A stretch of 59,612 bases of DNA, taken from Bacteroidales bacterium. Its GTDB lineage: Bacteria > Bacteroidota > Bacteroidia > Bacteroidales > P3. The stretch lies in the NCBI GenBank assembly GCA_017501495.1, contig JAFVWV010000149.1:1-59612 (forward strand). Direction: 5' to 3'. The position numbers and the translations under genes were made by a program. The stretch's first letter is position 1; the number at the start of each line of letters is the position of its first letter. Positions 20,029 through 37,182 of the stretch are shown here, piece by piece. The notes below the pieces were generated by a model. The model saw only the letters and a program-made list of their open reading frames with translations. It ran no database searches and was not told the origin of the DNA.

Positions 20029-20610
20029 ATGACAAAGAATCTCTACATAATAGCAGGTTGCAACGGAGCTGGCAAGACGACAGCATCCTACACCATACTG
20101 CCCGAGATTCTTGACTGCCACGAGTTCGTCAACGCCGATGAGATTGCCCGCGGCCTGTCGCCATTCAACCCTGGCGGCATGGCCATCGAAGCCGGCAAAC
20201 TGATGTTAAAGCGCATCAAAGAACTGCTCAGCCGCGACGAATCCTTTGCCATAGAAACCACCCTCGCCACCCGGTCTTATGTCAATCTTGTACATCAAGC
20301 ACAGGCCAAAGGCTATCTCGTTACCCTTGTGTTCTTTTGGCTCAACAGCCCAGAGTTGGCGCTACGGCGTATTGCCGAGCGTGTACAGAACGGTGGCCAC
20401 GATATTCCAGAGCCAACAGCACGACGTAGGTACATTGCAGGTATTGACAACCTCTTTAACCTATACATCCCGGAGGTTGACTATTGGATGATTTATGACA
20501 ATAGCGAATCTCCCTGTCTTCCCGTTGCACAAGGGAAAACAACGAAGACATCAACCCTCTACGATGAGGACAAACTGAATAAAATCAAGAGTTATGTCAG
20601 AAAAAGATGA
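20029..20610 (+). CDS. Zeta-toxin-family P-loop kinase
   Basis: Walker A AGCNGAGKTT at the N-terminus and a size of about 190 aa. GC is lower than the surrounding core genes. Confidence 0.65.
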   Translation: MTKNLYIIAGCNGAGKTTASYTILPEILDCHEFVNADEIARGLSPFNPGGMAIEAGKLMLKRIKELLSRDESFAIETTLATRSYVNLVHQAQAKGYLVTLVFFWLNSPELALRRIAERVQNGGHDIPEPTARRRYIAGIDNLFNLYIPEVDYWMIYDNSESPCLPVAQGKTTKTSTLYDEDKLNKIKSYVRKR

Positions 20611-20776
20611 GCAACTGCTAACCGAGAAATTGTTATACGGTTTGAAAATCTCCGAGCGTCGCATGCTCGAAGAGAAAGCCCTGCATGGAGAGGACATTGT
20701 CGTCTGTGATGCCGACAACAACATCCACCGCATACCCGCCAGCGAAGCATTAAAGAAACTTCCTGCCATACAATAA
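20594..20776 (+). CDS. Small hypothetical protein overlapping the zeta-like gene by 17 nt (possible cognate partner)
   Basis: 60-aa ORF, translationally coupled by overlap. No recognisable motif. Confidence 0.35.
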   Translation: MSEKDEQLLTEKLLYGLKISERRMLEEKALHGEDIVVCDADNNIHRIPASEALKKLPAIQ

Positions 20777-23707: not shown

Positions 23708-24964
23708 ATGGGACAACAAACTGATTGCAAGCAAAAAAGAAAAGGTTTGTTCACGATGATAGACCTTTTCGCAGGAGCAGGAGGTCTCTCTGAGGGGTTT
23801 GTGCAGGCTGGATTTGACCCCATTGCACACATTGAAATGGATAGAGACGCATGCGACACGTTGAGGACTCGCTGCTGCTATCACTATCTCCGCAACAAAA
23901 ATAAACTCGATATCTATTATAGCTACTTAAAAGGAGAGATTTCCAGAGACAAGCTATACAAGTCAGTACCTTCATGGGTTATTGATGCAGTAATAAATGT
24001 AGAGATTTCCGACAATACAATCAAATCAACTTTTGCAAAAATCAAAGAGTTGTCTGCCAACAGAGGGATTGACCTGATCATAGGTGGTCCTCCGTGCCAA
24101 GCATATTCTCTTTTGGGTCGACACGACAAGAAAATGGAAGATGACCCTCGCACCCGTTTATATCTTCAATACGGTAAGTTCCTTGCGGAATTCAAACCGA
24201 AAGGATTCGTTTTTGAGAACGTGCCGGGGCTGTTGAGTGCAAAAAAAGGAGAGCATTTCAAGAATTTAAGAGAATACTTCGATAGCTTGGGTTACAATGT
24301 ACACTATAAAATGCTCGATGCATCCGACTATGGTGTTTTACAAGTCAGGAAAAGGCTCATTATTGTAGGCTGGCAAAAAGAGCATGACTATGGATACCCG
24401 GACATTCCAATAAATAAAGCTTCTGTTGCTGTCAACGACATCCTTAATGATTTGCCTCTTTTGAAAGCAGGCGATGTTTTGCAGGTGGCACCGTATAGAC
24501 AGTCTGCAAACGAGTATTTGCTTGTTAGTGGAATTCGAGATAAAGACGAAGTATTTGTTACACAAAACATCACTCGTCCTATCAACACCAATGATGCCGC
24601 CATCTATGCTTATGCCATAAAAGCTTGGAATGACAAACATATCCGCGTTAAATACACCGATCTTCCTGTGGAGTTGAAGACGCATAAAAACGAGGAATCG
24701 TTTTTGGATAGGTTTAAGGTAGTTGATGGGAATGGTCTTTCGCATACTTTAGTCGCTCACCTTGCCAAAGATGGCCACTACTTTATCCATCCAAATATCA
24801 ATTACTGTCGTTCCATATCCATACGGGAAGCCGCCAGGCTGCAATCATTCCCTGACAACTACTTCTTCGAGGGAAGCCGTTCTGCAAAATTTAAACAAAT
24901 AGGCAATGCTGTGCCACCTTTGATGGCTAAGACTATTGCCACTACTATATTTCAAATGTTATGA
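23708..24964 (+). CDS. DNA (cytosine-5)-methyltransferase (M1)
   Basis: Motif I DLFAGAGGLSEGF, IV GGPPCQAYS, VI FVFENVPGL, VIII LQVRKRL, X QIGNAVPP. Confidence 0.95.
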   Translation: MGQQTDCKQKRKGLFTMIDLFAGAGGLSEGFVQAGFDPIAHIEMDRDACDTLRTRCCYHYLRNKNKLDIYYSYLKGEISRDKLYKSVPSWVIDAVINVEISDNTIKSTFAKIKELSANRGIDLIIGGPPCQAYSLLGRHDKKMEDDPRTRLYLQYGKFLAEFKPKGFVFENVPGLLSAKKGEHFKNLREYFDSLGYNVHYKMLDASDYGVLQVRKRLIIVGWQKEHDYGYPDIPINKASVAVNDILNDLPLLKAGDVLQVAPYRQSANEYLLVSGIRDKDEVFVTQNITRPINTNDAAIYAYAIKAWNDKHIRVKYTDLPVELKTHKNEESFLDRFKVVDGNGLSHTLVAHLAKDGHYFIHPNINYCRSISIREAARLQSFPDNYFFEGSRSAKFKQIGNAVPPLMAKTIATTIFQML

Positions 24965-27134
24965 CCGATAACTTGCCCATAAATTCAATGGAAGTGCCTG
25001 TTGATGACCAAGAACGGGTCGCAAAATTCAAGCCCCGTGCAAGGTTATTATTACAATTAGGGGACCAGCTGATAAAAAACGAAAGCATTGCATTGCTTGA
25101 GTTGGCCAAAAATGCTTATGATGCAGATGCCTCAAAAGTAACAATAATCATGCATAATCCAGATTCGATTGAAAATGGTGACATTGAAATTGAGGACGAT
25201 GGATTTGGCATGACCGGCGACATTGTTGAAAATGTTTGGCTTGAACCGGGAAGTAACTTTAAGCAGGAGCAATATATTGAACGTAAAGTGACACCTAAAT
25301 TCAAGCGACTTCCAATTGGTGAAAAAGGAATTGGTAGATTTGGTGCCCACAAACTTGGCAATGTCATTGAAATGACAACAAAAAATGCCGATGATAAAGA
25401 AGTTTATGTGCGTATCGATTGGACAAGGTTTGCGGAACATAAGTACTTAGATGAAGTTCCAATAAAAATAATAGAAAGGGGTAATCCCCAATATTTTACG
25501 GATGGAAAGACCGGAACCAGAATTGTTATTCATGGCTTTCGTCATCCTTGGGAAAGAGGAACTGCTCGCGAAGTAAAGAGAGCAATGACCTCTATAACTT
25601 CTCCTTTTGAAACAGTTGGATCGTTTAAACCGAGCTTTGAGATATTAGATAAACCAAATGGTTTGATGGAATATTGTCATGGGATGGAGTTCGTGATTAT
25701 TCTCTCTTTCAGTTTGAGGCAATAATAGAGGGTAATTCAATCACACATTTTTCCTACAAATTCACACCATGGGCGACCATGACGAAATTGAAAGAAAGAG
25801 AAGTTGGCATCACGGATTCCATTGTAAACAACTATTTGAGAATAAAAGATGAGAAAGAAGAGGATGTAAATCTAAAACAATATAAAATCGGCAGGATAAA
25901 ATTTAAAGGCTACATTTTTGACCAAGATGCTTTTGTGTTAAAGATGGGGTTATCAGATAAATCCGGTTTTAAAGCATATTTAAAGTCTAATGGTGGGGTT
26001 CGTGTATTTCGAGACGGGCTAAGAATATATGACTACGGAGAACCCGAGAATGACTGGTTGGCATTGGATTATAGAAGATTTCAGCAGCCGACAAAAGCCA
26101 TTAGCAATAATCTCATTGTCGGTGCTGTTGAACTAAATAGAGATGAAAGCTCTGATTTGGAGGAAAAGACAAATCGAGAGGGCTTTGTGGCTAATGATGC
26201 CTATGCTGCATTTAAGAATGCTGTTTTGCATATCATTGAAATAGTTGAGATTCTTCGTCAAACAGACAAGAAAAAACTAAAAGAAATATACGGCCCGACA
26301 CCGAAATCCGAGCCCGTAATGAGCCTTATCGGAGAGGCTCAACGGTATGTCGAAGATAAGGTCGCAAACAGTGAAGTGAAAGCTGAAATCAAGAAATACC
26401 TCGTTAAAATCGAGCGTGACTATAAGATAGTGACCGACAATTTGCTAAAAGCCGCTGGTGCTGGCCTGAATATGTCCGTTGTTGTACATGAGATTGAAAA
26501 AATAATATATGAAGTCACAAAAGTATTAAAATCAGAGAAAGCATCGGAAAGAGTTCTTCATCTTGTGGAACATCTTTCTTCGCTGATTGATGGCTATGCA
26601 GATTTGATTCGTCGTTCAGACCAAACAACAGAAAATGTTGTTAACATTGTGAATCAAGCATTGTTTAATACAGAATATAGACTAGAAGCTCACAACATAG
26701 TTCTAATAAAAAAGTATAGTGGCAACAGTCAAATAAAAAATGTGCGATGCAAGGTGGCCAGAAATTTGATGATTAGCACTGTAATGAACCTGATCGACAA
26801 CTCTATCTATTGGCTTGATCAAAAATATTTCAAGAAAAAAGAAAAGAATGAATCGTTTAATAAGAAACTATACATTGACATTTTCCAAGAAAATGATTTT
26901 GTAAACATTTTGGTCGCTGATAATGGTACAGGCATATTATTACCCACGGAAGAAATCACAGAACCATTTGTTACAGGAAAGAAAAATGGAGCTGGCATGG
27001 GACTAGGCCTTCATATTGCAAGTGAAGTGATTGCTGCACAAGGTGGAAAAATCATTTTCCCCGACAATGGGGATTATGATGTCCCAGCAGAATTCCAAGA
27101 AGGTGCAATTGTCGTATTATCATTGAAAAAATAA
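24961..27134 (+). pseudogene. Fused MORC-like GHKL ATPase plus histidine-kinase transmitter (DHp + HATPase_c), split by a 1-nt frameshift near 25653-25662
   Basis: N-terminus: ELAKNAYDADASKVTI, IEDDGFGM, GEKGIGRFGAHKLG. C-terminus: H-box-like VVHEIEKII, N-box MNLIDNSIYW, G1 VADNGTGI, G2 GAGMGLGLHIA. ORFs 24961..25725 and 25674..27134 overlap in frames 1 nt apart, and the frame-2 sequence reads naturally from 25653. Confidence 0.75.
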
Positions 27135-27142
27135 TCTTATAT

Positions 27143-28504
27143 ATGAAAGATAGCATTATACCGATAACGGGACGTATTGCCATAATTGATGACAATATTA
27201 ACGAAGTAAAACCACTTATGAGGGAGTTTTCTCAAAACAACATCCCTTATGTTTATATCAAAGGTGACGACGAATCTTTTTTCCCAGAAGAACCAGACAA
27301 TGATATTCGGATACTTTTTTTAGATATTAATCTTTTAGGGCAATCCTCTACTAACGATAAAAACATTAAAAGCAATCTTATTAGTGTAATCCGAAGAGTT
27401 ATTTCCCCTAATAATTACCCGTATGTTTTAATATATTGGAGCCTTCAGGAACGTGAATATGACGCAATAATTCGAGAAGTGTTTGAAACCGTCTTGGAAG
27501 ATAGGCGTCCCATTTCTGTACATCGGTTTATAAAATCGGACTTCTTTTTAATACCGGGAGGAGAAGAACAACCTACTGACAAGAACATTGTTGAAGAATT
27601 AAAGAGAATAGTTCAGGGAATCCCTGCATATAACTATTTAATGCAGTGGGAAAATATTGCACATAATTCCACAGACAAGTTATTAAAAGAAATTTTTCCA
27701 AATGCAACCCCCGATGAATGGGAAAATGTAACGAACGTAATAATAAATTCATTAGGGCAAGCATACATTGGACAATATTTCCACGATGCTCCAATTGAAG
27801 AAAAAATCAAAGCAAGTTTAATGGCCTTAAATATGATATTTGTCGATTCTTTAGACAATCATTTAGGTCAATGTGAGATAAACAATCCCCAAGAGCTAAC
27901 TTCAAATGATTTTGACAAACAAAGAATAGGAGAATTAAAAGCCACTCTCAATCACAAATTGCTCATTTATACAACTCCCAACAATATTTGTGAACCAGGT
28001 GTGGTTATCCAATACACAAAGCCTACAAATGGCTATTTTGAGTCATTTCTACACAAAGTATTATCTATTTTCTCAATAAAACATGAAATCTTATGCAAAA
28101 CGCCAGACATTCTTGATGGTTTATTGAAGCAAGAATTAGGCAACAGAGTAAAACAGATAAAACAAGAAATCCAACAAACCTGGATAAGAATAGGTGTTGT
28201 AGTAACTCCAAGTTGCGATTTTGCACAAAAGAAAAAAATCTGTGACCGGGTTGTGCAAGGTGTCATGATAGAATCTCAATTTAGAAATTATTTAAATCAA
28301 GGTGATGCCTTTTATACCTCTCCTATAATAAGGCATGATGGGAGAAATTATATTGTCGTATTAAACTTTAATTATTTTATTACAACAAACCTTAACGGCG
28401 AGTCAGACTGCACTATTCTTTTTAAAATAAGACGTCCAATGTTGGCAGAAATTCAATCAAAATTAGCTCGACATATCAACCGACAGGGAATAATGAATTT
28501 ATAG
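27143..28504 (+). CDS. Receiver (REC)-like domain protein with an uncharacterised C-terminal domain of about 300 aa
   Basis: RIAIIDDN (acidic pair), ILFLDINLL (candidate phospho-acceptor Asp61), VLIYWS and a later Lys fit a CheY-like pattern. The rest of the protein has no motif I recognise. Confidence 0.6.
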   Translation: MKDSIIPITGRIAIIDDNINEVKPLMREFSQNNIPYVYIKGDDESFFPEEPDNDIRILFLDINLLGQSSTNDKNIKSNLISVIRRVISPNNYPYVLIYWSLQEREYDAIIREVFETVLEDRRPISVHRFIKSDFFLIPGGEEQPTDKNIVEELKRIVQGIPAYNYLMQWENIAHNSTDKLLKEIFPNATPDEWENVTNVIINSLGQAYIGQYFHDAPIEEKIKASLMALNMIFVDSLDNHLGQCEINNPQELTSNDFDKQRIGELKATLNHKLLIYTTPNNICEPGVVIQYTKPTNGYFESFLHKVLSIFSIKHEILCKTPDILDGLLKQELGNRVKQIKQEIQQTWIRIGVVVTPSCDFAQKKKICDRVVQGVMIESQFRNYLNQGDAFYTSPIIRHDGRNYIVVLNFNYFITTNLNGESDCTILFKIRRPMLAEIQSKLARHINRQGIMNL

Positions 28505-28513
28505 ACAGGTATT

Positions 28514-29776
28514 ATGCCAAAGAACACATATAATATTAATTCTTTTTTTGCAGGAGTAGGCGGATTTGACGTAGCGTTTGAAAGACAAGGATTTTCGACG
28601 ACATTACTGTGTGAGATAAACCCGTTCTGTAATCAAATCCTAGACAGGCATTGGCCTCATGTTAAAAAAGTTGGTGATATTAATATTATTAAATCAGACG
28701 ATATTCCACAATCTAATGTGTGGTGCGGAGGATTTCCTTGTCAGGACATTTCTGTTGCTCGGGGTGCTTCAGCAAGATTAGGATTGAAAGGAACCAGGTC
28801 TGGTTTGTTTTATCGTTTTGCAGAACTAATTGAAGCAGAAAAGCCCGAAGTTGTAATTATTGAGAATGTTGCCGGTCTGTTTACATCTAATAAAGGAAGA
28901 GATTTCGGAGTTATTCTACAGACTCTATCCTCTTTGGGTTATGCTGTTGCTTGGAGATTGTTGAACAGCCGCTATTTTGGTGTTCCGCAGTCTCGTACAC
29001 GTGTTTATTTGTGTTGCTGGAGAAATAACCCCCAAAAAGCATTAAGCGTCATGTTCGATAAAAAAGGTGCTGTAAAACCACAAAACGAAAGAATTGATTT
29101 TATTACAGAAGATAACGCCCGTAATACATATCCTAAAGTACCTAAAGTAGCCTATTGCCTTGCGGCTTCATCTGGAAGACATACTGGAACGGATTGGAGT
29201 AGGACATATGTTGTTTGCAGAAATGGTGTCCGACGTTTGTCACCTGTTGAATCAGAAAGACTTCAGGGTTTTCCAGATAATTGGACTTTGCCGTCGGAGG
29301 AATTGATAAATGATGAAAACATAAACACGCTCAGATATACTGCAATAGGGAATGCAGTATCTGTTCCTGTTGTTGAATGGGTGGCAAAAAAGGTGAAGAA
29401 ACAGCTTGGAAGTAAGCTCAAGGAAAATGATTTAGCGGATGATATTATGTCATATCATGATTTAAAAAAATCAAAGTGGTCTGATGTGGAATTAAATAAT
29501 ATTGACTTTACCGATACAACAAAAACATATAAATGGGAAAGAGGTGGTTTGGTCTGGCATAACCGGTTCATCGAATGCAATATTCCGCCCACTCCTTCTG
29601 AAATTGTTAATTCGTCTTTGTCAAACTTGATTGAAAAAAAACAAAACAATCCAGTTTATTTTCTTTCGCCAAACGCAGCAGAAGGAATTTTACGACGTGT
29701 TGATAGCCAAAATAGAAGTCTTTTTGCACCATTGCGAATCGCTTTAGAAAAATTAAGTTCCCAAAATAACAAATAA
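28514..29776 (+). CDS. DNA (cytosine-5)-methyltransferase (M2) with a C-terminal extension
   Basis: Motif I SFFAGVGGFDVAF, IV GGFPCQDIS, VI IIENVAGL, VIII PQSRTRVY, X IGNAVSVPV. Confidence 0.95.
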   Translation: MPKNTYNINSFFAGVGGFDVAFERQGFSTTLLCEINPFCNQILDRHWPHVKKVGDINIIKSDDIPQSNVWCGGFPCQDISVARGASARLGLKGTRSGLFYRFAELIEAEKPEVVIIENVAGLFTSNKGRDFGVILQTLSSLGYAVAWRLLNSRYFGVPQSRTRVYLCCWRNNPQKALSVMFDKKGAVKPQNERIDFITEDNARNTYPKVPKVAYCLAASSGRHTGTDWSRTYVVCRNGVRRLSPVESERLQGFPDNWTLPSEELINDENINTLRYTAIGNAVSVPVVEWVAKKVKKQLGSKLKENDLADDIMSYHDLKKSKWSDVELNNIDFTDTTKTYKWERGGLVWHNRFIECNIPPTPSEIVNSSLSNLIEKKQNNPVYFLSPNAAEGILRRVDSQNRSLFAPLRIALEKLSSQNNK

Positions 29777-29777
29777 T

Positions 29778-31520
29778 ATGATGAACTTCAATTTTATTAC
29801 AGTCCGATTAGGCAAAGATAGCATTCCTGACATTGAAAGGATTTGCTCGTCGGAGGTTGGCGTTCTGAATGATTCTTTCGCCATAAATGTGAAATGTACT
29901 CAGATTCCTGAAAATTATAATTCGGGAGATTATGCTTTTATTTGGTTGGGCTCAGACAACAATAAAGGAATGCCAACAAAATGGAAACAGGGATTTAAAG
30001 CAATAGGACGGGTTGGTACTATTATACGTGGTGCCAGTTATAATGAGACATCTGAAACCGCTATTAATATTGTCTACGTTTTTAATGACGCAATCAATCG
30101 TCTTGATTTTTTAAGGTCTGCACCTATTGAGTATTATTGGTGTTCAAACATGCCATTGATTGGAATTGACGATCATGCTAATCAAACGATAAGAAGTGTT
30201 AGTGGTTCATCTTTATGTGATATTCCCGCACTCTTTTGCTCAATAAATAGAATTTGTGACACCTTTAAAAGTGATATCTTAAAAATAGAACCTGGTTTTC
30301 TGCACCTTTTCTCTTTTTCAATACCAAAACCCAAAAACTTCCCTGATGCAAAATCAATAGTTGAAGTTAAACAACAGAATAATAAAAAGACAACTACAGG
30401 GAATACTTATCTACCCTACCTCGCCGCCTTGCGGACGAAGCCGTTTATGTTGCTGGCGGGTATTTCGGGAACGGGAAAGAGTAGGATTGTGAGGGAGATG
30501 GCAAAGGCTTGCTGGAAGGAGGGCGACCCGGAATATGGGAAGCCCCTCCCAAGGAACTTCTGCATGGTGCAGGTAAAGCCCAACTGGCACGACAGCAGCG
30601 AACTGATAGGCTATGTGTCGCGTCTGAACGGGGAGAAGTTCGTGGTGGGTCCGTTCCTACGTTTCCTGGCGGCGGCACTCAAAGAGCCCGATGTGCCTTA
30701 TTTCCTCTGCCTTGACGAGATGAACCTCGCCCCTGTGGAGCAATACTTCGCCGAATACCTCTCCGTCATTGAGAGCCGCAAACTGAACCCCGACGGTACC
30801 ATCACTACCGACCCCATCATCGAATATGAGAACACCGATGCCTACGGCAGCCTGATAGACCAACTGTTTGACACACCTGAGGAACGCAAAGCCTACAAGA
30901 CCGATGATGGCGGCAAGCGCCTCTCCATCCCACAGAACCTCTTCGTGGTGGGTACGGTGAATATGGACGAGACAACCTTCTCGTTCAGCCGTAAGGTGCT
31001 GGACCGCGCCATGACTATCGAGATGAATGAGGTGGACCTACACGGAGGTCTTGAGAAAGGCACCGGCAACGACATCGGCTATATAGGCAACAGTATCATC
31101 GGCGATGCCGCCGAGGGCTGCGATGTGTACGAGGACAACCGCGAGCTGTGCGACCAAGTGCTGGCCTACCTGGAGCAGGTGAACGCCATCCTAGAGGGCA
31201 CCCCCTTCAAGATAGCTTACCGCACCCGCAATGAATTCCTGATGTACGCCGTCAATCGCAAGGCTCTGGCCCCCGACAGCCAGCTGTGGCAGACCCTCGA
31301 CGAGATGACCTCTATGAAAATCCTCTCCCGCATCGAAGGCGACGAAGAGCGCACCAAGAAAGTCCTCGACGGCCTCAAAGCCCTGGTAGATGAGCAGATT
31401 GTGTCCGCCATCCCGCCCGCCGAAGAAGGCAATCCTGTGCAGAAAAGCATCTCCGCCGCCAAGATAGAAGAGATGCAGAAGAAACTCCAAGCCACAGGCT
31501 TCACCAGCTACTGGGCATAG
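29778..31520 (+). CDS. McrB/LlaJI.R1-like AAA+ GTPase restriction subunit. The AT-rich N-terminal domain presumably binds DNA, and the AAA+ domain is GC-rich.
   Basis: Walker A LLAGISGTGKSR, NWHDSSELIGY, Walker B FLCLDEMNLAP, VVGTVNMDETT and SRKVLDRAMTIE, all typical of the McrB AAA_5 family. Confidence 0.8.
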   Translation: MMNFNFITVRLGKDSIPDIERICSSEVGVLNDSFAINVKCTQIPENYNSGDYAFIWLGSDNNKGMPTKWKQGFKAIGRVGTIIRGASYNETSETAINIVYVFNDAINRLDFLRSAPIEYYWCSNMPLIGIDDHANQTIRSVSGSSLCDIPALFCSINRICDTFKSDILKIEPGFLHLFSFSIPKPKNFPDAKSIVEVKQQNNKKTTTGNTYLPYLAALRTKPFMLLAGISGTGKSRIVREMAKACWKEGDPEYGKPLPRNFCMVQVKPNWHDSSELIGYVSRLNGEKFVVGPFLRFLAAALKEPDVPYFLCLDEMNLAPVEQYFAEYLSVIESRKLNPDGTITTDPIIEYENTDAYGSLIDQLFDTPEERKAYKTDDGGKRLSIPQNLFVVGTVNMDETTFSFSRKVLDRAMTIEMNEVDLHGGLEKGTGNDIGYIGNSIIGDAAEGCDVYEDNRELCDQVLAYLEQVNAILEGTPFKIAYRTRNEFLMYAVNRKALAPDSQLWQTLDEMTSMKILSRIEGDEERTKKVLDGLKALVDEQIVSAIPPAEEGNPVQKSISAAKIEEMQKKLQATGFTSYWA

Positions 31521-31546
31521 AAAGTATATAATATGGATTTGTCATT

Positions 31547-32707
31547 ATGAATACTTATAATATACCGACGTTACCTCTACCTTACGACCTTGAGACCATT
31601 GCCGTCTTAAAGCAGGTAAACCGAGCAAACAAAAAGCTGGCTGAGTTGAAGGGCGTCGCACAAACTATTCCCAACGAGCAGATTCTTATCAGCAGCCTAA
31701 CCCTACAAGAATCCCGGGACAGTTCCTACGTGGAAAACATTGTCACTACGCATGACGAATTGTATCGTGCGGAATTGGAACCGACGTTGATTGAATTCAA
31801 TGCCGCAACCAAAGAGGTTTTGCACTACAGAGAAGCCATCAATGAAGGTTTCCGTCTTGTAAGAGACAAGAACATTCTCACGCTGAATCATATAAAACGC
31901 ATCCAAGAAATACTTGAAGAAAATAAAGCCGGATTCAGAAGTACACCTGGAACAAAGCTCAAGAGAGAATCCGATGATGCCATCGTATATGTTCCGCCTC
32001 AGGATCCGATGGAGGTGGAAAGATGCATGGTAAACCTGGAACAATTCATTAATGACATTGAGTTGAGCCCTGTCGACCCATTAATCAAAATGGCCATTAT
32101 CCACCATCAATTCGAAAGTATACATCCTTTCTACAACGGCAATGGGAGAACAGGTCGTATTGTAAATATATTATATCTCGTCATAAGCGGCTTGCTTGAC
32201 TTGCCAATCCTTTATCTAAGTCGATACATTACGCACAACAAAGGTGAGTACTATCGACTATTGCAAGCCATCAGAGACAAGAACATAGACAATGCGAAGG
32301 AATGGGAAGAATGGGTTTTGTTCATTCTCAAGGGTGTTGAATCAACTGCTGAAGACACGATAACCCTTGTAAAAAGTATTGGATCAATGATGGATGATTA
32401 CAAGAGGATTTTGAGACCGGCTTTCGGGAAAAAATATAGTCATGACCTTATAAACGGTTTGTTCTATCATCCCTATACCAAGATAGAACATGTGGAAAGA
32501 AATCTACAACTCTCACGACAGACAGCCTCAAAGTACCTTAACAAAATTGTATCATTGGGATTGCTTCACAAAGAAAAGATTGGAAAAGAGAACTACTACA
32601 TAAACACCAGATTGATGGATTTATTTGTCAGTTTCGGTGAATATGACGCTATCGTCCCCAATGAGAGTATAGAATCTGTTCATGTTAACGAAATCAAAAA
32701 AAATTAA
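31547..32707 (+). CDS. Fic-family protein (Fic_N, Fic core, C-terminal wHTH)
   Basis: Core motif HPFYNGNGRTGR at 32123-32158, inhibitory-helix motif SSYVEN (SxxxEN) at 31721-31738, and an AT-rich composition. Confidence 0.85.
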   Translation: MNTYNIPTLPLPYDLETIAVLKQVNRANKKLAELKGVAQTIPNEQILISSLTLQESRDSSYVENIVTTHDELYRAELEPTLIEFNAATKEVLHYREAINEGFRLVRDKNILTLNHIKRIQEILEENKAGFRSTPGTKLKRESDDAIVYVPPQDPMEVERCMVNLEQFINDIELSPVDPLIKMAIIHHQFESIHPFYNGNGRTGRIVNILYLVISGLLDLPILYLSRYITHNKGEYYRLLQAIRDKNIDNAKEWEEWVLFILKGVESTAEDTITLVKSIGSMMDDYKRILRPAFGKKYSHDLINGLFYHPYTKIEHVERNLQLSRQTASKYLNKIVSLGLLHKEKIGKENYYINTRLMDLFVSFGEYDAIVPNESIESVHVNEIKKN

Positions 32708-32747
32708 CATGAGATGCATGGTCATGTTAAGAAATTTCATTTTTTTT
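32704..32747 (+). terminator. Possible terminator after fic
   Basis: Stem ttaacatga / tcatgttaa, then gaaatttca and a T8 run. The T-run is not adjacent to the stem. Confidence 0.4.
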
Positions 32748-32805
32748 AACACGTTATTATTGTCAAGTTGATTTTTTGAAAAAAACTTAACACGAGAATT
32801 ATTAC

Positions 32806-34938
32806 ATGGACCTCCTGCGCATCACACACGACGATTTCTTCCTGACGGTGGAAAGTACCCAGTTCCAACGAATGTGGGACAAGGGGAGTCGCATCCTCGG
32901 CAGGGAGAAGTTGACCTCCTCATATCATTGGGGTGAGGGGGTACAGAAAGTGGTGCTGGTGAAAGGGGATGTTGAATGTGAGATTGTGCAGGACAATACC
33001 GAGACACCCGCTGTATTCTTCGAACAGACGGACTACAGCGTGTGGGTGGATTTTACCAATTCCAAGGTGACAAAAGCATGGTTCGACAGCCCAAGGAAGG
33101 ATGTCAACGACCGCTTCTCTTGGAAAGGGAGCAAGCAGATGTTGGCAGGATTCCTGAACTACGGTAACGAAATTGGCCGTGCCGACATGCCGATATGCTA
33201 CACCGTGAACGGAGTGCAGAAAAAATTTGTTTTCTCCTACGATGTCATCTCAGCCAAGTTGGACTATCATCAAGACTGGAAGATTATCCTGCAGGACATC
33301 GAGGAGGAGTACCGCATGCTGTCGCTGGACTACCTGCGGCGCACCTATCACGGCATCAAGGAAGAGCATGGCGAGAGTTACGACATCATTTGGTGGAATA
33401 TCTTCGGCGGGCTGCAAGAGCAGTTCCTGCGTACCGTCCATAACATCATCGACCGGCCACGTCATCGGCTGAAATCCATCGAGACCTACAAACGGGCCGA
33501 CCAGATACGCCGCCTCACACCGCAACTGGAGCAACAACTGGCCGAGCACCGCATGGAAGAGACCCGCCTGTACCGCGTAGAGGAGCAGCAGAACACCTAT
33601 AATACCCCAGAAAACCGTTTCCTGAAGCATGCCCTGCTGACGGTTCAAAAACGCTATTCTGCCCTCGCAGAGAGAGTTCTCCTGCAGGACACCCGTATGG
33701 CCGACACCCACCGGGACAGGATAGCCCACACCCGTGACGAGCTGAACCGCCTGTTGCGACACCCCTTCTTCCGTACCGTGGGACCATTTGACGGCATCAA
33801 GCAGGAGTCGCTCATCCTGCAGAAGGATGTAAATTACTCGAAAGTGTTCCGCATCTACACCATCCTGCAAAAGTCCTTCAGCCTCAACGACGGTCTCTAC
33901 CGCATGGAGACCAAGGACATAGCCACCCTGTACGAGATATGGTGTTTCATCCAGGTGGAGAAGGTGGTCAAAGAGCTGACTGGCGCAGAAGCCGAGCAGC
34001 ATAGCCGCACGGAGATGAGTGGTCTTTTCACCTACAGTCTTGGCAAAGGCGAACACTCGAAGATTATCTTCAAGAAAGACGATGTGACGCTGGCTGAGTT
34101 GGTTTACAATCCACGGCATAGTGACAAGGACGACGTGAAAGGTATTGGTGAGTTGGAGTCGAAGACCGTGCCGCAGAAACCCGACATCGTGTTGCAGCTC
34201 ACCAAGGACGATCTGCAGGAAGGCATGAAACTCACCTACCTCTTCGATGCCAAATACCGGTTGGAGAAAGATGGTGCGAACGATGTGCCCCCCGACGATG
34301 CCATCAACCAGATGCACCGCTACCGTGACGCTATCTACTATAACAGCAAACACCGGGACGAGAAGATAAAGAAAGAGGTCATCGGCGGCTACATCCTCTT
34401 CCCCGGCCAGATGGACGAACTCTCGCGCTTCCGTCGCAGCATCGACGAGGTGAATATCGGAGCTTTCCCTATGCGTCCCGGCGACAACCAGCACGAACTA
34501 TTGTCCGACTTCATCAAAGACCTACTGAACAAACACGCCGTGGAAATCGTCGAGCAAGTTATCCCGCAGAAAGGTACCTACCTGGAGATAAAGAACAGAG
34601 TCTTGGTTGGCGTAGTCAAGTCCGACAACCCTCAATATGAGAACTTCAAGGATGGCACCGCCTCCTTCTACTACTCTGGCGACACTTTTCCAACTACCAT
34701 CCCATTGGATGGCATAGATTATTTCGCACCATACATCCCCGACAAAGGAATACGTGACCTATATCTTGTGTCAGGCATCCACACCTCAACCAAGGCCAAG
34801 GGGGCTGATGACGACAAACTTCGTATCACCTTTGAGCTCAAATTTGCCCGTACTTTATTTACAGACTACAAAATAGTCCCCCTCCCGATACAACACACTT
34901 TCAACGACACCTCATTGGACAAACTAACTTTGGAGTGA
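32806..34938 (+). CDS. McrC/LlaJI.R2-like restriction subunit (DUF2357-like N-terminus plus PD-(D/E)xK nuclease)
   Basis: 710 aa. KPDIVLQL ... YLFDAKYR gives the D...(D/E)xK arrangement seen in McrC-type nucleases. It follows the McrB-like gene. Confidence 0.7.
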   Translation: MDLLRITHDDFFLTVESTQFQRMWDKGSRILGREKLTSSYHWGEGVQKVVLVKGDVECEIVQDNTETPAVFFEQTDYSVWVDFTNSKVTKAWFDSPRKDVNDRFSWKGSKQMLAGFLNYGNEIGRADMPICYTVNGVQKKFVFSYDVISAKLDYHQDWKIILQDIEEEYRMLSLDYLRRTYHGIKEEHGESYDIIWWNIFGGLQEQFLRTVHNIIDRPRHRLKSIETYKRADQIRRLTPQLEQQLAEHRMEETRLYRVEEQQNTYNTPENRFLKHALLTVQKRYSALAERVLLQDTRMADTHRDRIAHTRDELNRLLRHPFFRTVGPFDGIKQESLILQKDVNYSKVFRIYTILQKSFSLNDGLYRMETKDIATLYEIWCFIQVEKVVKELTGAEAEQHSRTEMSGLFTYSLGKGEHSKIIFKKDDVTLAELVYNPRHSDKDDVKGIGELESKTVPQKPDIVLQLTKDDLQEGMKLTYLFDAKYRLEKDGANDVPPDDAINQMHRYRDAIYYNSKHRDEKIKKEVIGGYILFPGQMDELSRFRRSIDEVNIGAFPMRPGDNQHELLSDFIKDLLNKHAVEIVEQVIPQKGTYLEIKNRVLVGVVKSDNPQYENFKDGTASFYYSGDTFPTTIPLDGIDYFAPYIPDKGIRDLYLVSGIHTSTKAKGADDDKLRITFELKFARTLFTDYKIVPLPIQHTFNDTSLDKLTLE

Positions 34939-35370: not shown

Positions 35371-35680
35371 CTCCTGCTCGCGCTCCGCGCATCGCGAAAT
35401 CTCGTAGATCTTGTAGATTATTCCGCCTGCGGCGAGGACGCAAGGCGAAACAATATATAAGATTTATGGATCTCTGCCCATCAGGGTTAGGCGATTAATT
35501 CTCCTGCTCGCGCTATGCGCTTGCAAGATCTTGTAGATCTTGTAGATTATTTCGCCTGCGGCGGGGCGCAAGGCGAAACGATATATAAGATTTATAGATC
35601 TCTTCCCGCAGGGCTTGGCGATTAATTCTTCTGCTCACGCTCCGCGCATCGCGAAATCCCGCAGATCTTGTAGATTAAGA
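35371..35680. repeat. Tandem repeat, about 2.4 copies of a 127-130 bp unit
   Basis: Units start at 35371, 35501 and 35628 (ctcctgctcgcgct...). Each contains agatcttgtagatta sub-repeats and an imperfect hairpin cgcctgcgg..cgcaaggcg. Confidence 0.9.
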
Positions 35681-36636: not shown

Positions 36637-37182
36637 ATGACCGACACCATGACACCCGAGCAGCGGCACCGCTGCATGTCGCACATACGCAGCAAGGCCA
36701 CGAGGCCGGAACTGCTGGTGCGGCGGTGGCTGTGGAGCCACGGGTATCGGTATCGGCTGAACGTCAAGAGTGTCCCCGGCAAGCCGGACATCGTGCTGCG
36801 GCCCTACCGCACGGCGATATTCGTCAACGGGTGCTTCTGGCACGGACATGGTGTGCGTCCTCCGGCCGTACAAATTGAAAATTCAAAATTGAAAATTGAA
36901 AACTCCCCCTGCTGTAAGATTCCACAGACTAACCGCAACTTCTGGCTGGAGAAGATACGTCGCAACCAGGAGCGCGACCAGCGCAACTACACCCTGCTGC
37001 AGGACAACGGCTGGCAGGTCATCGTCGTCTGGGAGTGCCAACTGAAGCCCGACAAGATAGAGCGCACCATGCGCGAGGTGGAACTGGCGCTGAACAACAA
37101 CCTGCTGGCAATATATAAACACCATCCCCTCCCCTACTCCACCGACGAGGACGAACCCATGCCCATGGCGGCGGAGGATTGA
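36637..37182 (+). CDS. vsr: Very-short-patch repair endonuclease (Vsr) carrying an in-frame insertion of about 18 aa
   Basis: RSKATRPEL, PGKPDIVL, FVNGCFWHGH, NFWLEKIRRNQERD and VIVVWECQL. The segment VRPPAVQIENSKLKIENSP lies between GH and CC. Confidence 0.85.
   Translation: MTDTMTPEQRHRCMSHIRSKATRPELLVRRWLWSHGYRYRLNVKSVPGKPDIVLRPYRTAIFVNGCFWHGHGVRPPAVQIENSKLKIENSPCCKIPQTNRNFWLEKIRRNQERDQRNYTLLQDNGWQVIVVWECQLKPDKIERTMREVELALNNNLLAIYKHHPLPYSTDEDEPMPMAAED

Follow-up and report, generated by a model that had tools for sequence, protein, structure and literature searches.

Introduction

The closest described relatives of the locus reported here are two-component-like elements presented by Bellieny-Rabelo, Pretorius & Moleleki (2021, Genome Biol Evol; PMC8011034). 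Their GHKL proteins consist of HATPase_c_3, HEF_HK, a new domain resembling the dimerization and histidine phosphotransfer (DHp) domain, and HATPase_c, and for 91.6% of the family a linked gene encodes another new domain, the receiver-like Response_reg_2, this gene lying no more than three genes away. C5 cytosine methylases are usually found upstream and Vsr often downstream of the pair, and members were reported from Proteobacteria, Bacteroidetes (with Bacteroides examples cited), Firmicutes and others. The authors, whose work was wholly computational, related the family to paraMORCs and speculated on a role in the regulation of restriction-modification. A literature search returned no later experimental paper on the HEF_HK/Response_reg_2 family. 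The present analysis concerns a 59,612-nucleotide stretch of a Bacteroidales bacterium (assembly GCA_017501495.1, contig JAFVWV010000149.1), hereafter the window, and in it a kinase-like gene at positions 24961-27134, the C5 cytosine methyltransferase gene M1 before it and the receiver-like gene behind it at 27143-28504. L numbers denote the loci and contigs with which it was compared.

The window region 24961-27134 is a single gene for a cytosolic protein of 724 amino acids, interrupted in the assembly by the loss of one A from a run of four. As judged from sequence, the module to which it belongs corresponds in architecture and gene context to the HEF_HK/Response_reg_2 elements: the protein is soluble, about 700 amino acids long and carries a DHp region with a His-Glu H-box between two ATPases (HATPase_c_3, H-box, HATPase_c), a receiver-like gene of the 400-460 amino acid class, devoid of other known domains, follows directly, a C5 methylase is adjacent and Vsr lies nearby. 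The design is thus not new. The original prediction had called it an unusual sensor design, a view which does not hold in light of the architecture, receiver-like partner and linked C5 methylase published in 2021 (PMC8011034). Nor is the family rare, as it comprises 1074 clusters at 50% identity (E < 1e-30) from many phyla, with homologues on 87 plasmid records, 56 of them predicted to be conjugative.

Several other systems share parts with the module. The paraMORCs of restriction-modification systems (Iyer, Abhiman & Aravind 2008) likewise have an N-terminal GHKL ATPase with intact motifs followed by a transducer-type middle domain, are linked with cytosine methylases and Vsr, and show a sporadic, mobile distribution. 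They differ in that their ATPase is joined to a nuclease, TIR domain or helicase, whereas here it is joined to a histidine-kinase transmitter and the output is handed to a separate receiver protein. In the Shedu-type protein paraMORC3/VcSduA the GHKL ATPase is required for the fused nuclease to protect against phage, and the ATPase Glu is required for phage defense (PMC12137116). Detocs (Rousset et al. 2023) is a two-component-type anti-phage system. Its likeness to the window module is one of logic only; beyond the generic kinase and receiver folds there are no homologous parts. The Detocs kinase is said to sense infection and to phosphorylate a receiver fused to a toxic effector, the effector domains being swappable. 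Reportedly, its kinase is of the hybrid type and bears a repeat-type sensor, buffering is left to a separate receiver protein, the effector is a nucleosidase and no methylase takes part. In the window operon neither a second receiver (buffer) gene nor a nucleosidase domain was found.

Gene structure and frameshift

The first open reading frame (ORF) starts at ATG 24961, ends at 25725 and encodes 254 amino acids, the last 21 of which are junk, such a tail being found in no homologue when the proteins are compared. The out-of-frame letters, GLMEYCHGMEFVIILSFSLRQ, occupy 25660-25722 and end at TAA 25723-25725. From 25653 a second frame stays open until its stop codon at 27132-27134. The first frame contains the motifs ELAKNAYDA (25099-25125), IEDDGFGM (25189-25212) and GEKGIGRFG (25318-25344), and the second VVHEIEKII (26481-26507), NLIDNSIYW (26787-26813), DNGTGI (26919-26936) and GAGMGLGLHIA (26988-27020). 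All seven motifs, the TAA and the start of the second open frame lie where the original prediction had placed them.

The window reads CCAAATGG at 25654-25661, in place of CCAAAATGG in L001-L005 and in the six contigs L094-L099. At the intact site the codons are CCA AAA TGG (Pro232-Lys233-Trp234), and homologues read EILDKPKWFDG across the junction. The frame was repaired in silico by adding one A after position 25658. One missing base had been predicted at this spot, and AAA instead of AAAA at 25656-25658 is what was found; the predicted length of about 725 amino acids requires correction to 724. The intact homologues, once aligned, carry the fused frame throughout, with AAAA at the site. Hundreds of intact proteins of 717-724 amino acids with both domains are present in a large protein collection, the closest being 97% identical. 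In annotation the two ORFs should be merged into a single gene that is either a pseudogene or affected by a sequencing error.

The exact 453 amino acid neighbor of the kinase-like gene is encoded in seven contigs from different samples, six of which span the frameshift site. These six align with the window over 6-19 kb, all read AAAA, and the gene is called intact in them (715/724 amino acids). Apart from a 128-bp tandem repeat, four of the contigs are free of substitutions in unique sequence and two have 1-5, and the missing A is the sole indel. Because all six matching contigs carry AAAA, the break is a private one-base difference of this assembly.

On balance the break is probably a real mutation. 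All 87 homopolymer runs of at least 5 nucleotides (34 of them at least 6) agree with L096 over the shared 15.8 kb; the assembly is therefore not generally prone to indels, which mildly favors a real, very recent deletion. The kinase-like gene would then be switched off here by the frameshift with the upstream methylase untouched; alternatively, the base is simply absent from the assembly. This second account, in which the organism has an intact 724 amino acid gene and a functional system and the break is a sequencing or assembly error, is credible, if the less probable of the two. It is favored by the AAAA in six of six spanning contigs from other samples, by the lack of any other difference over 6-11 kb in four of them, which leaves no visible divergence time, by the fact that a change in homopolymer length is the commonest kind of consensus error, and by the exact truncated product of 254 amino acids having no record in any other assembly. 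Against it stand, besides the agreement of the 87 runs, the missing A as sole indel outside the tandem repeat, the shortness of an A4 run for a systematic error and the occurrence of broken copies elsewhere, in the kinase-like gene (L061, L079) as well as in the partner gene (L067). Restriction-like systems, moreover, commonly lose the toxic arm while keeping the methylase, so that such a loss is a common real outcome.

A third account, in which the two halves act separately as a GHKL ATPase of 254 amino acids and a kinase of about 486 amino acids restarted at TTG 25674, is highly improbable and the least likely of the three, behind assembly error and recent inactivation. The TTG lies 16 nucleotides past the shift, an ATG is present at 25779, and 34 of 222 published family proteins naturally lack the N-terminal ATPase domain (PMC8011034); however, residue 233, where the break occurs, is part of the transducer domain in the AlphaFold2 model, the first ORF closes with the junk tail, no relative is split at this residue and the near-identical contigs are all fused. 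Programmed frameshifting or transcriptional slippage was rejected, as the sequence lacks a slippery heptamer, the A run counts just 3 nucleotides and the relatives encode the fused frame directly.

Other split kinase-like genes were seen on the Tunturiibacter plasmid L061 (509 + 102 amino acids) and in Candidatus Synechococcus spongiarum, L079 (250 + 264), and a split partner gene in L067, a Prolixibacteraceae metagenome-assembled genome (MAG) (219 + 255). The tandem repeat mentioned above lies at 35371-35677 of the window (2.4 copies, 84% identity) and is the only indel site besides the frameshift relative to the otherwise near-identical L095.

Domain organization of the kinase-like protein

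In the repaired protein, Pfam HATPase_c_3 is matched by residues 43-172 (E 3.6e-15) and HATPase_c by residues 607-723 (E 1.8e-13). Both ATPase domains were detected by Pfam in all 68 relatives tested, and the catalytic motifs of both ATP sites are kept in these, down to 26% identity. In the first module, E47, N51, D54, D79xGxG and GEKGxGR are at least 90% conserved among the 68, and the three GHKL motifs are present: motif I (ExxxNxxD), to which the catalytic Glu47 and the Mg-binding Asn belong, motif II (DxGxG) and the glycine-rich lid, motif III (GxxGxG).

The structure was modeled with AlphaFold2 on the intact relative P0001 (97% identical), using 68 diverse homologues, with a mean predicted local distance difference test (pLDDT) score of 85. 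In Foldseek searches of the PDB the N-terminal part matched, over about 450-500 columns, the Hsp90 N-terminal and middle domains (E 1e-13), the SMCHD1 ATPase module (E 1.4e-12) and DNA-bound MORC2 (E 2.3e-11); TRAP1 was also matched. Residues 1 to ~450 are thus predicted by the model to form a GHKL ATPase plus transducer domain of the Hsp90/MORC/paraMORC kind, with the order typical of a paraMORC-type module, GHKL followed by an S5-fold transducer, recognizable at the fold level. As the scores of Hsp90 and SMCHD1 equal or exceed that of MORC2, the module was filed as paraMORC-like and not as MORC. The best N-terminal match in NCBIfam is to the GHKL part of the BbrUII/HgiDII restriction enzymes (NF050001, E 2.6e-21, residues 30-209). 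These type II enzymes are the closest curated match for the domain and are also paired with methylases, but of the 659 profile positions only 174 are aligned, the score of 75.8 bits falls short of the cut-off of 550 and no nuclease part is present; the protein does not belong to this family. The NCBIfam mutL model was matched at E 8e-4, and MutL is also among the matches of the family profile to PDB sequences.

The C terminus matches a long list of sensor kinases in NCBIfam. When the family profile was compared with PDB sequences, kinases were found at E 1e-14 to 1e-18, LvrB, ZraS and ThkA being at 1e-16 to 1e-18. In the profile alignment, His510 of VVHEIEK falls on the H-box His of LvrB (maHEINN) and ThkA (vaHEIRN). 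It is invariant in the 68 relatives and, in the AlphaFold2 model, is located in a helix (505-525) paired with a second helix (530-550), while the Pfam HisKA model has no match on the window protein. The N, G1 and G2 boxes of a catalytic and ATP-binding (CA) domain are present (NLIDNSIYW, DNGTG, GMGLGL), and N610, N614, D654xGxG and GMGLGL are kept in the 68 relatives. Foldseek matched this part, over about 260 columns, to the PDB structures of the histidine kinase ZraS and of LOV-FixL chimeras including YF1 (LOV-HK). From sequence and model together, residues ~505 to 724 are predicted to be a complete DHp-CA transmitter with the phospho-His in the canonical position.

The HE-type H-box in the DHp and the N, G1 and G2 boxes in the CA domain are shared with HisKA-type kinases such as HK853, ThkA, LvrB, ZraS and FixL. 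Unlike the classical members, the window protein has no membrane, PAS, HAMP or GAF sensor, its input being the second GHKL ATPase, and it has Lys four positions after the His, where classical kinases have Thr or Asn. Thr or Asn at this position is linked with phosphatase activity.

The original prediction had proposed two GHKL modules in one polypeptide, an N-terminal one of the Hsp90/MORC/MutL kind and a C-terminal kinase transmitter. The two Pfam domains and the abundance of intact homologues of 717-724 amino acids uphold the first point, the Foldseek matches to Hsp90, SMCHD1 and MORC2 at E 1e-11 to 1e-13 the second, and the profile matches to LvrB, ZraS and ThkA, with the H-box His placed on their phospho-His, the third. 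By sequence, the protein appears to be the sensor kinase of a compact, mobile three-gene module of C5 cytosine methylase, kinase-like protein and receiver-effector protein.

Receiver-like partner

The partner protein was recognized by its predicted structure. Its AlphaFold2 model has a mean pLDDT of 86.7, and the top Foldseek matches are the receivers of FixJ, StyR, HemR and ETR1 (probability 0.99-1.0, E 2e-4 to 1e-2). The N-terminal part has the (beta-alpha)5 receiver (REC) fold with the acidic residues behind beta-1, the phospho-acceptor Asp behind beta-3, the Thr/Ser behind beta-4 and the Lys behind beta-5. D16, D61, S100 and K131, the classical receiver set, are all invariant among 44 close homologues of the partner; across 70 partners from many phyla D61 is the sole invariant column, followed by D16 and K131 with a conservation of 90% or more. 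A PLM motif in alpha-1 of the REC domain is invariant or nearly so in partner homologues. The suggestion that the product of 27143-28504 could receive the phosphoryl group from the kinase is thus plausible in view of the predicted REC fold and the conserved Asp16, Asp61, Ser100 and Lys131. Searches by sequence gave no match of the window partner in Pfam, NCBIfam, PADLOC or the PDB. Pfam Response_reg (PF00072) has no match on it even at E 10, and matches three of the 70 partner relatives, only L085 passing the cut-off (44.3 bits vs 30.2).

Behind the REC domain, residues ~150-345 are helical and are followed by an alpha/beta domain (346-453) in which Cys358-Asp359 and Arg447-x-Gly449 are invariant. 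For this output domain, the best profile match among PDB sequences was a cellulase at E 0.22, which is noise; in Foldseek searches of the PDB the REC part of the partner alone found matches; among viral models nothing was found below E 1e-3; and Pfam searches of 44 and of 70 relatives returned no known family. A DNA-binding output domain, helix-turn-helix or other, was detected in none of the 70 partners. In two loci, L039 (8091-8846, Fibrobacteria MAG) and L044 (8150-8902, Gammaproteobacteria MAG), the kinase-like gene is followed by one for a protein of 250 amino acids, which consists of REC and a C-terminal segment with a canonical RNxFAH HEPN motif and weak matches to HEPN_Swt1 and DUF4145. 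The partners in L070, L071 and L074 have an output of a third type, which is short. With three output types among the partners, the output is therefore regarded as swappable.

Between operons of the window lineage (L001, L086, L088) the partner is 43-60% identical, with M1 94-99% and the kinase-like protein 95-99% identical, and the variation is concentrated in residues 241-345. This hypervariability, seen at the sequence level, suggests recombination or diversifying selection, a pattern that would be typical of arms-race components.

Gene context and mobility

The M1 ORF is open from TTG 23672, and the start codon of the kinase-like gene overlaps its stop (ATGA). The receiver-like gene follows the kinase-like gene after 8 nucleotides, M2, a second C5 methyltransferase gene, follows after 9 and a McrB-like gene after 1, and no terminator-like site was found on the + strand between M1 and M2. 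Counts from the promoter and terminator scan did not exceed those in shuffled sequence, and the sigma-70 consensus used in it does not apply to Bacteroidota. M1 shares 93-94% identity with the methylase of 418 amino acids that precedes the intact gene in L001, L005 and L086, and 78% with the one in L088. M2 is a variable accessory of the lineage: it is absent in L001, and in L086 and L088 a different methylase of 330-332 amino acids, 28-30% identical to M2, stands in its stead.

A set of 80 species-representative loci from many phyla was obtained by searching with the family alignment. In at least 73 of the 80 the next gene downstream of the kinase-like gene is the receiver-like one, and a C5 methylase lies at most 6 kb from the kinase-like gene in 66. 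Plasmid p85s3p of Burkholderia glumae carries the genes in the order kinase-like, receiver-like, Vsr, Dcm, and on Campylobacter jejuni pAR-0413-1 the Prokaryotic Genome Annotation Pipeline (PGAP) lists 'sensor histidine kinase', 'response regulator' and dcm. Vsr is the usual companion of C5 methylases and, in other genomes, of the gene trio; in the window it lies ~7 kb from the module, with the McrBC-like block between it and both C5 methylases. A distant blastn search with the Salinivibrio copy against complete E. coli genomes found nothing.

The module is situated in a low-GC island (window 24000-33000) of 35-42% GC, compared with ~58-62% in the genome, a contrast in base composition that indicates probable recent horizontal acquisition. 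The flanks of the island carry type IX secretion genes, which mark the host as one of the Bacteroidota, and the neighbors of the module within the island are McrBC-like and SoFic genes.

Proposed function

The best explanation overall, and one held to be rather likely, is a methylation-linked defense module in which an ATPase clamp would control the transfer of the phosphoryl group to a toxic effector governed by a receiver. The methylase would mark host DNA for self-protection, and the N-terminal ATPase/transducer clamp would engage DNA or another sign of invasion. ATP-driven dimerization of the clamp would then prompt the CA domain to autophosphorylate His510, from which the phosphoryl group would pass to Asp61 of the receiver-like protein, and phosphorylation of Asp61 would release the C-terminal effector domain to act on the invader or the infected cell. 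The effector would be an HEPN RNase-type domain in some relatives and, in the window, the domain with the conserved Cys-Asp pair. The kinase and receiver proteins would in this way stand in for the restriction enzyme of a restriction-modification-like defense unit. From sensing onward, we infer each step of this scheme.

An effector (immune) role was preferred over a transcriptional one because no partner has a DNA-binding output, some relatives have an HEPN output and the partner is hypervariable. These three observations, made by sequence comparison, go beyond the 2021 paper (PMC8011034); the HEPN-type outputs, hypervariable partner and plasmid carriage point to an effector role in place of the regulatory one proposed there. 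The location in a low-GC island next to McrBC-like and SoFic genes, the near-obligate gene adjacency, the C5-methylase linkage and the mobility are consistent with defense, and by analogy paraMORC3/VcSduA (PMC12137116) and Detocs may serve as precedents.

Several findings weigh against this explanation. PADLOC finds no known defense system at this locus, the single related hit being the weak match of the GHKL domain to a type II restriction enzyme. For the output domain of the window partner no resemblance to a nuclease or toxin could be detected, and the HEPN matches in L039 and L044 are below the Pfam thresholds. The partner does not co-vary with either methylase, which makes a classical sequence-specific restriction enzyme paired with M1 an unlikely identity for it. 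No experiment is on record for any member of the family, kinase activity, phosphotransfer, DNA sensing and defense all being deduced. Finally, the Pfam models PF19191 (HEF_HK) and PF19192 (Response_reg_2) have no match on the window proteins or P0001 and miss most relatives: HEF_HK matches one of the 68 kinase-like relatives (E 0.008), and Response_reg_2 matches, of the 70 partners, L082 only (25.2 bits vs a cut-off of 27). Both also fail on proteobacterial and plasmid members, and the models are therefore considered narrow. Since the profile test failed, the window genes were placed in the published family on architecture and synteny.

The best-surviving rival to the defense module is an ordinary regulatory two-component system that controls the neighboring methylase or restriction genes and has no effector, as was speculated in PMC8011034. 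The kinase/receiver layout and the tight linkage to restriction-modification genes (PMC8011034) would suit it, as would the PGAP label 'response regulator' of the Campylobacter partner. It is nevertheless unlikely, as a DNA-binding output domain is detectable in none of the 70 partners, some partners have an HEPN-type output, hypervariability between near-identical operons is unexpected of a housekeeping regulator and the kinase has a DNA-clamp-type ATPase instead of a membrane or small-ligand sensor domain.

A role in DNA repair, in which the MutL-like ATPase half would coordinate Vsr-type repair of the T:G mismatches left when the 5-methylcytosine made by the linked methylase is deaminated, is very unlikely. 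MutL stimulates Vsr in E. coli, and the GHKL and transducer half resembles MutL-class ATPases in the NCBIfam mutL match (E 8e-4) and the MutL matches in the PDB; Vsr, in addition, is often the next gene (p85s3p; PMC8011034) and is present in the window. Repair does not, however, call for a kinase module or for a receiver whose output is large and variable, the module is mobile, being carried on conjugative plasmids and in defense islands, with HEPN-type outputs in some relatives, and Vsr accompanies almost any C5 methylase, so that the methylase alone explains its presence.

A classical type II restriction-modification system is not indicated either: M1 and M2 are present, and no nuclease domain was found in the kinase-like and receiver-like proteins with Pfam, NCBIfam, PADLOC or the PDB, the only nuclease-type genes nearby being the McrC-like gene and Vsr. 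The partner as a sequence-specific restriction enzyme matched to the methylase was rejected, since it is only 43-60% identical where M1 stays at 94-99%, and since L086 and L088 share an M2 that is 85% identical while their partners are only 45% identical.

If the defense reading is correct, a MORC/Hsp90-type ATP clamp and a His-Asp phosphorelay would be joined as a sensor-to-effector chain for the discrimination of self and non-self DNA. The system is mobile and occurs in many bacterial phyla, in one archaeal-labeled MAG and on conjugative plasmids of the pathogens Campylobacter and Burkholderia, and it could offer a simple bacterial model for how MORC-type ATPases read the state of DNA. More tentatively, the trio may form a distinct and widespread methylation-linked immune class, in which the GHKL clamp would convert the detection of foreign, unmodified DNA into a His-Asp phosphorelay with swappable toxic output, HEPN in some lineages and a new Cys-Asp domain here; this would amount to restriction by phosphorelay that needs no classical restriction endonuclease. 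The family is a candidate for a new type of methylation-linked immunity, so far described by computation. The message of the window itself is smaller, a known gene type that lies one base away from otherwise identical or near-identical intact copies.

Neighboring genes and other features

The coordinates of the module and of the associated methylation genes are summarized in Table 1.

Table 1. Location and basis of assignment of the kinase-like gene, its partner and the associated genes in the window
Feature	Position	Strand	Contents	Basis
M1, C5 cytosine DNA methyltransferase, 418 amino acids from ATG 23708	23708-24964	+		Pfam DNA_methylase (E 7.9e-66), NCBIfam dcm
Kinase-like gene, 5' part, in frame	24961-25658	+	Residues 1-232 and two bases of codon 233; GHKL ATPase module 1 (E47, N51, D79xGxG, GEKGIGRFG) and start of transducer domain	Pfam, motif conservation, fold match
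Frameshift site	25656-25658	+	AAA run, AAAA in all relatives	DNA comparison with L001-L005 and L094-L099
Out-of-frame tail and premature stop of first ORF	25659-25725	+	GLMEYCHGMEFVIILSFSLRQ; TAA 25723-25725	Translation
Kinase-like gene, 3' part, second frame	25659-27134	+	Residues 234-724; rest of transducer (EKTNREGF, 26163-26186), helical linkers, DHp helix with His510 (CAT 26487-26489), CA domain with N, G1 and G2 boxes	
Receiver-like partner, 453 amino acids	27143-28504	+	N-terminal REC (D16, D61, S100, K131), helical middle, hypervariable 241-345, C-terminal alpha/beta domain	AlphaFold2 and Foldseek, conserved residues, synteny
M2, second C5 cytosine methyltransferase, 420 amino acids	28514-29776	+		Pfam DNA_methylase (E 3.3e-61)
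Vsr, very-short-patch repair endonuclease	36637-37182	+		NCBIfam TIGR00632 (E 4.8e-42)

M2 directly abuts the McrB-like AAA_5 gene (29778-31520), which is followed by SoFic (31547-32707) and by the McrC-like gene (32806-34938) with DUF2357 and PDDEXK_7. The McrB-like protein matches the PADLOC candidate PDC-M26A (E 1.4e-42). The arrangement is an odd one, with a methylase coupled to a McrBC-like pair and a Fic gene inserted between the two. At 20029-20776 a protein of 193 amino acids of the zeta-toxin/AAA_33 type is followed by an overlapping ORF of 60 amino acids, and the two may be a toxin-antitoxin pair at the island edge. Outside the window, L016 (2026-12837), a MAG labeled Cenarchaeum, contains four tandem kinase-like paralogues of 788, 746, 749 and at least 203 amino acids with receiver-like fragments in between, an unusual local amplification in an archaeal-labeled genome.

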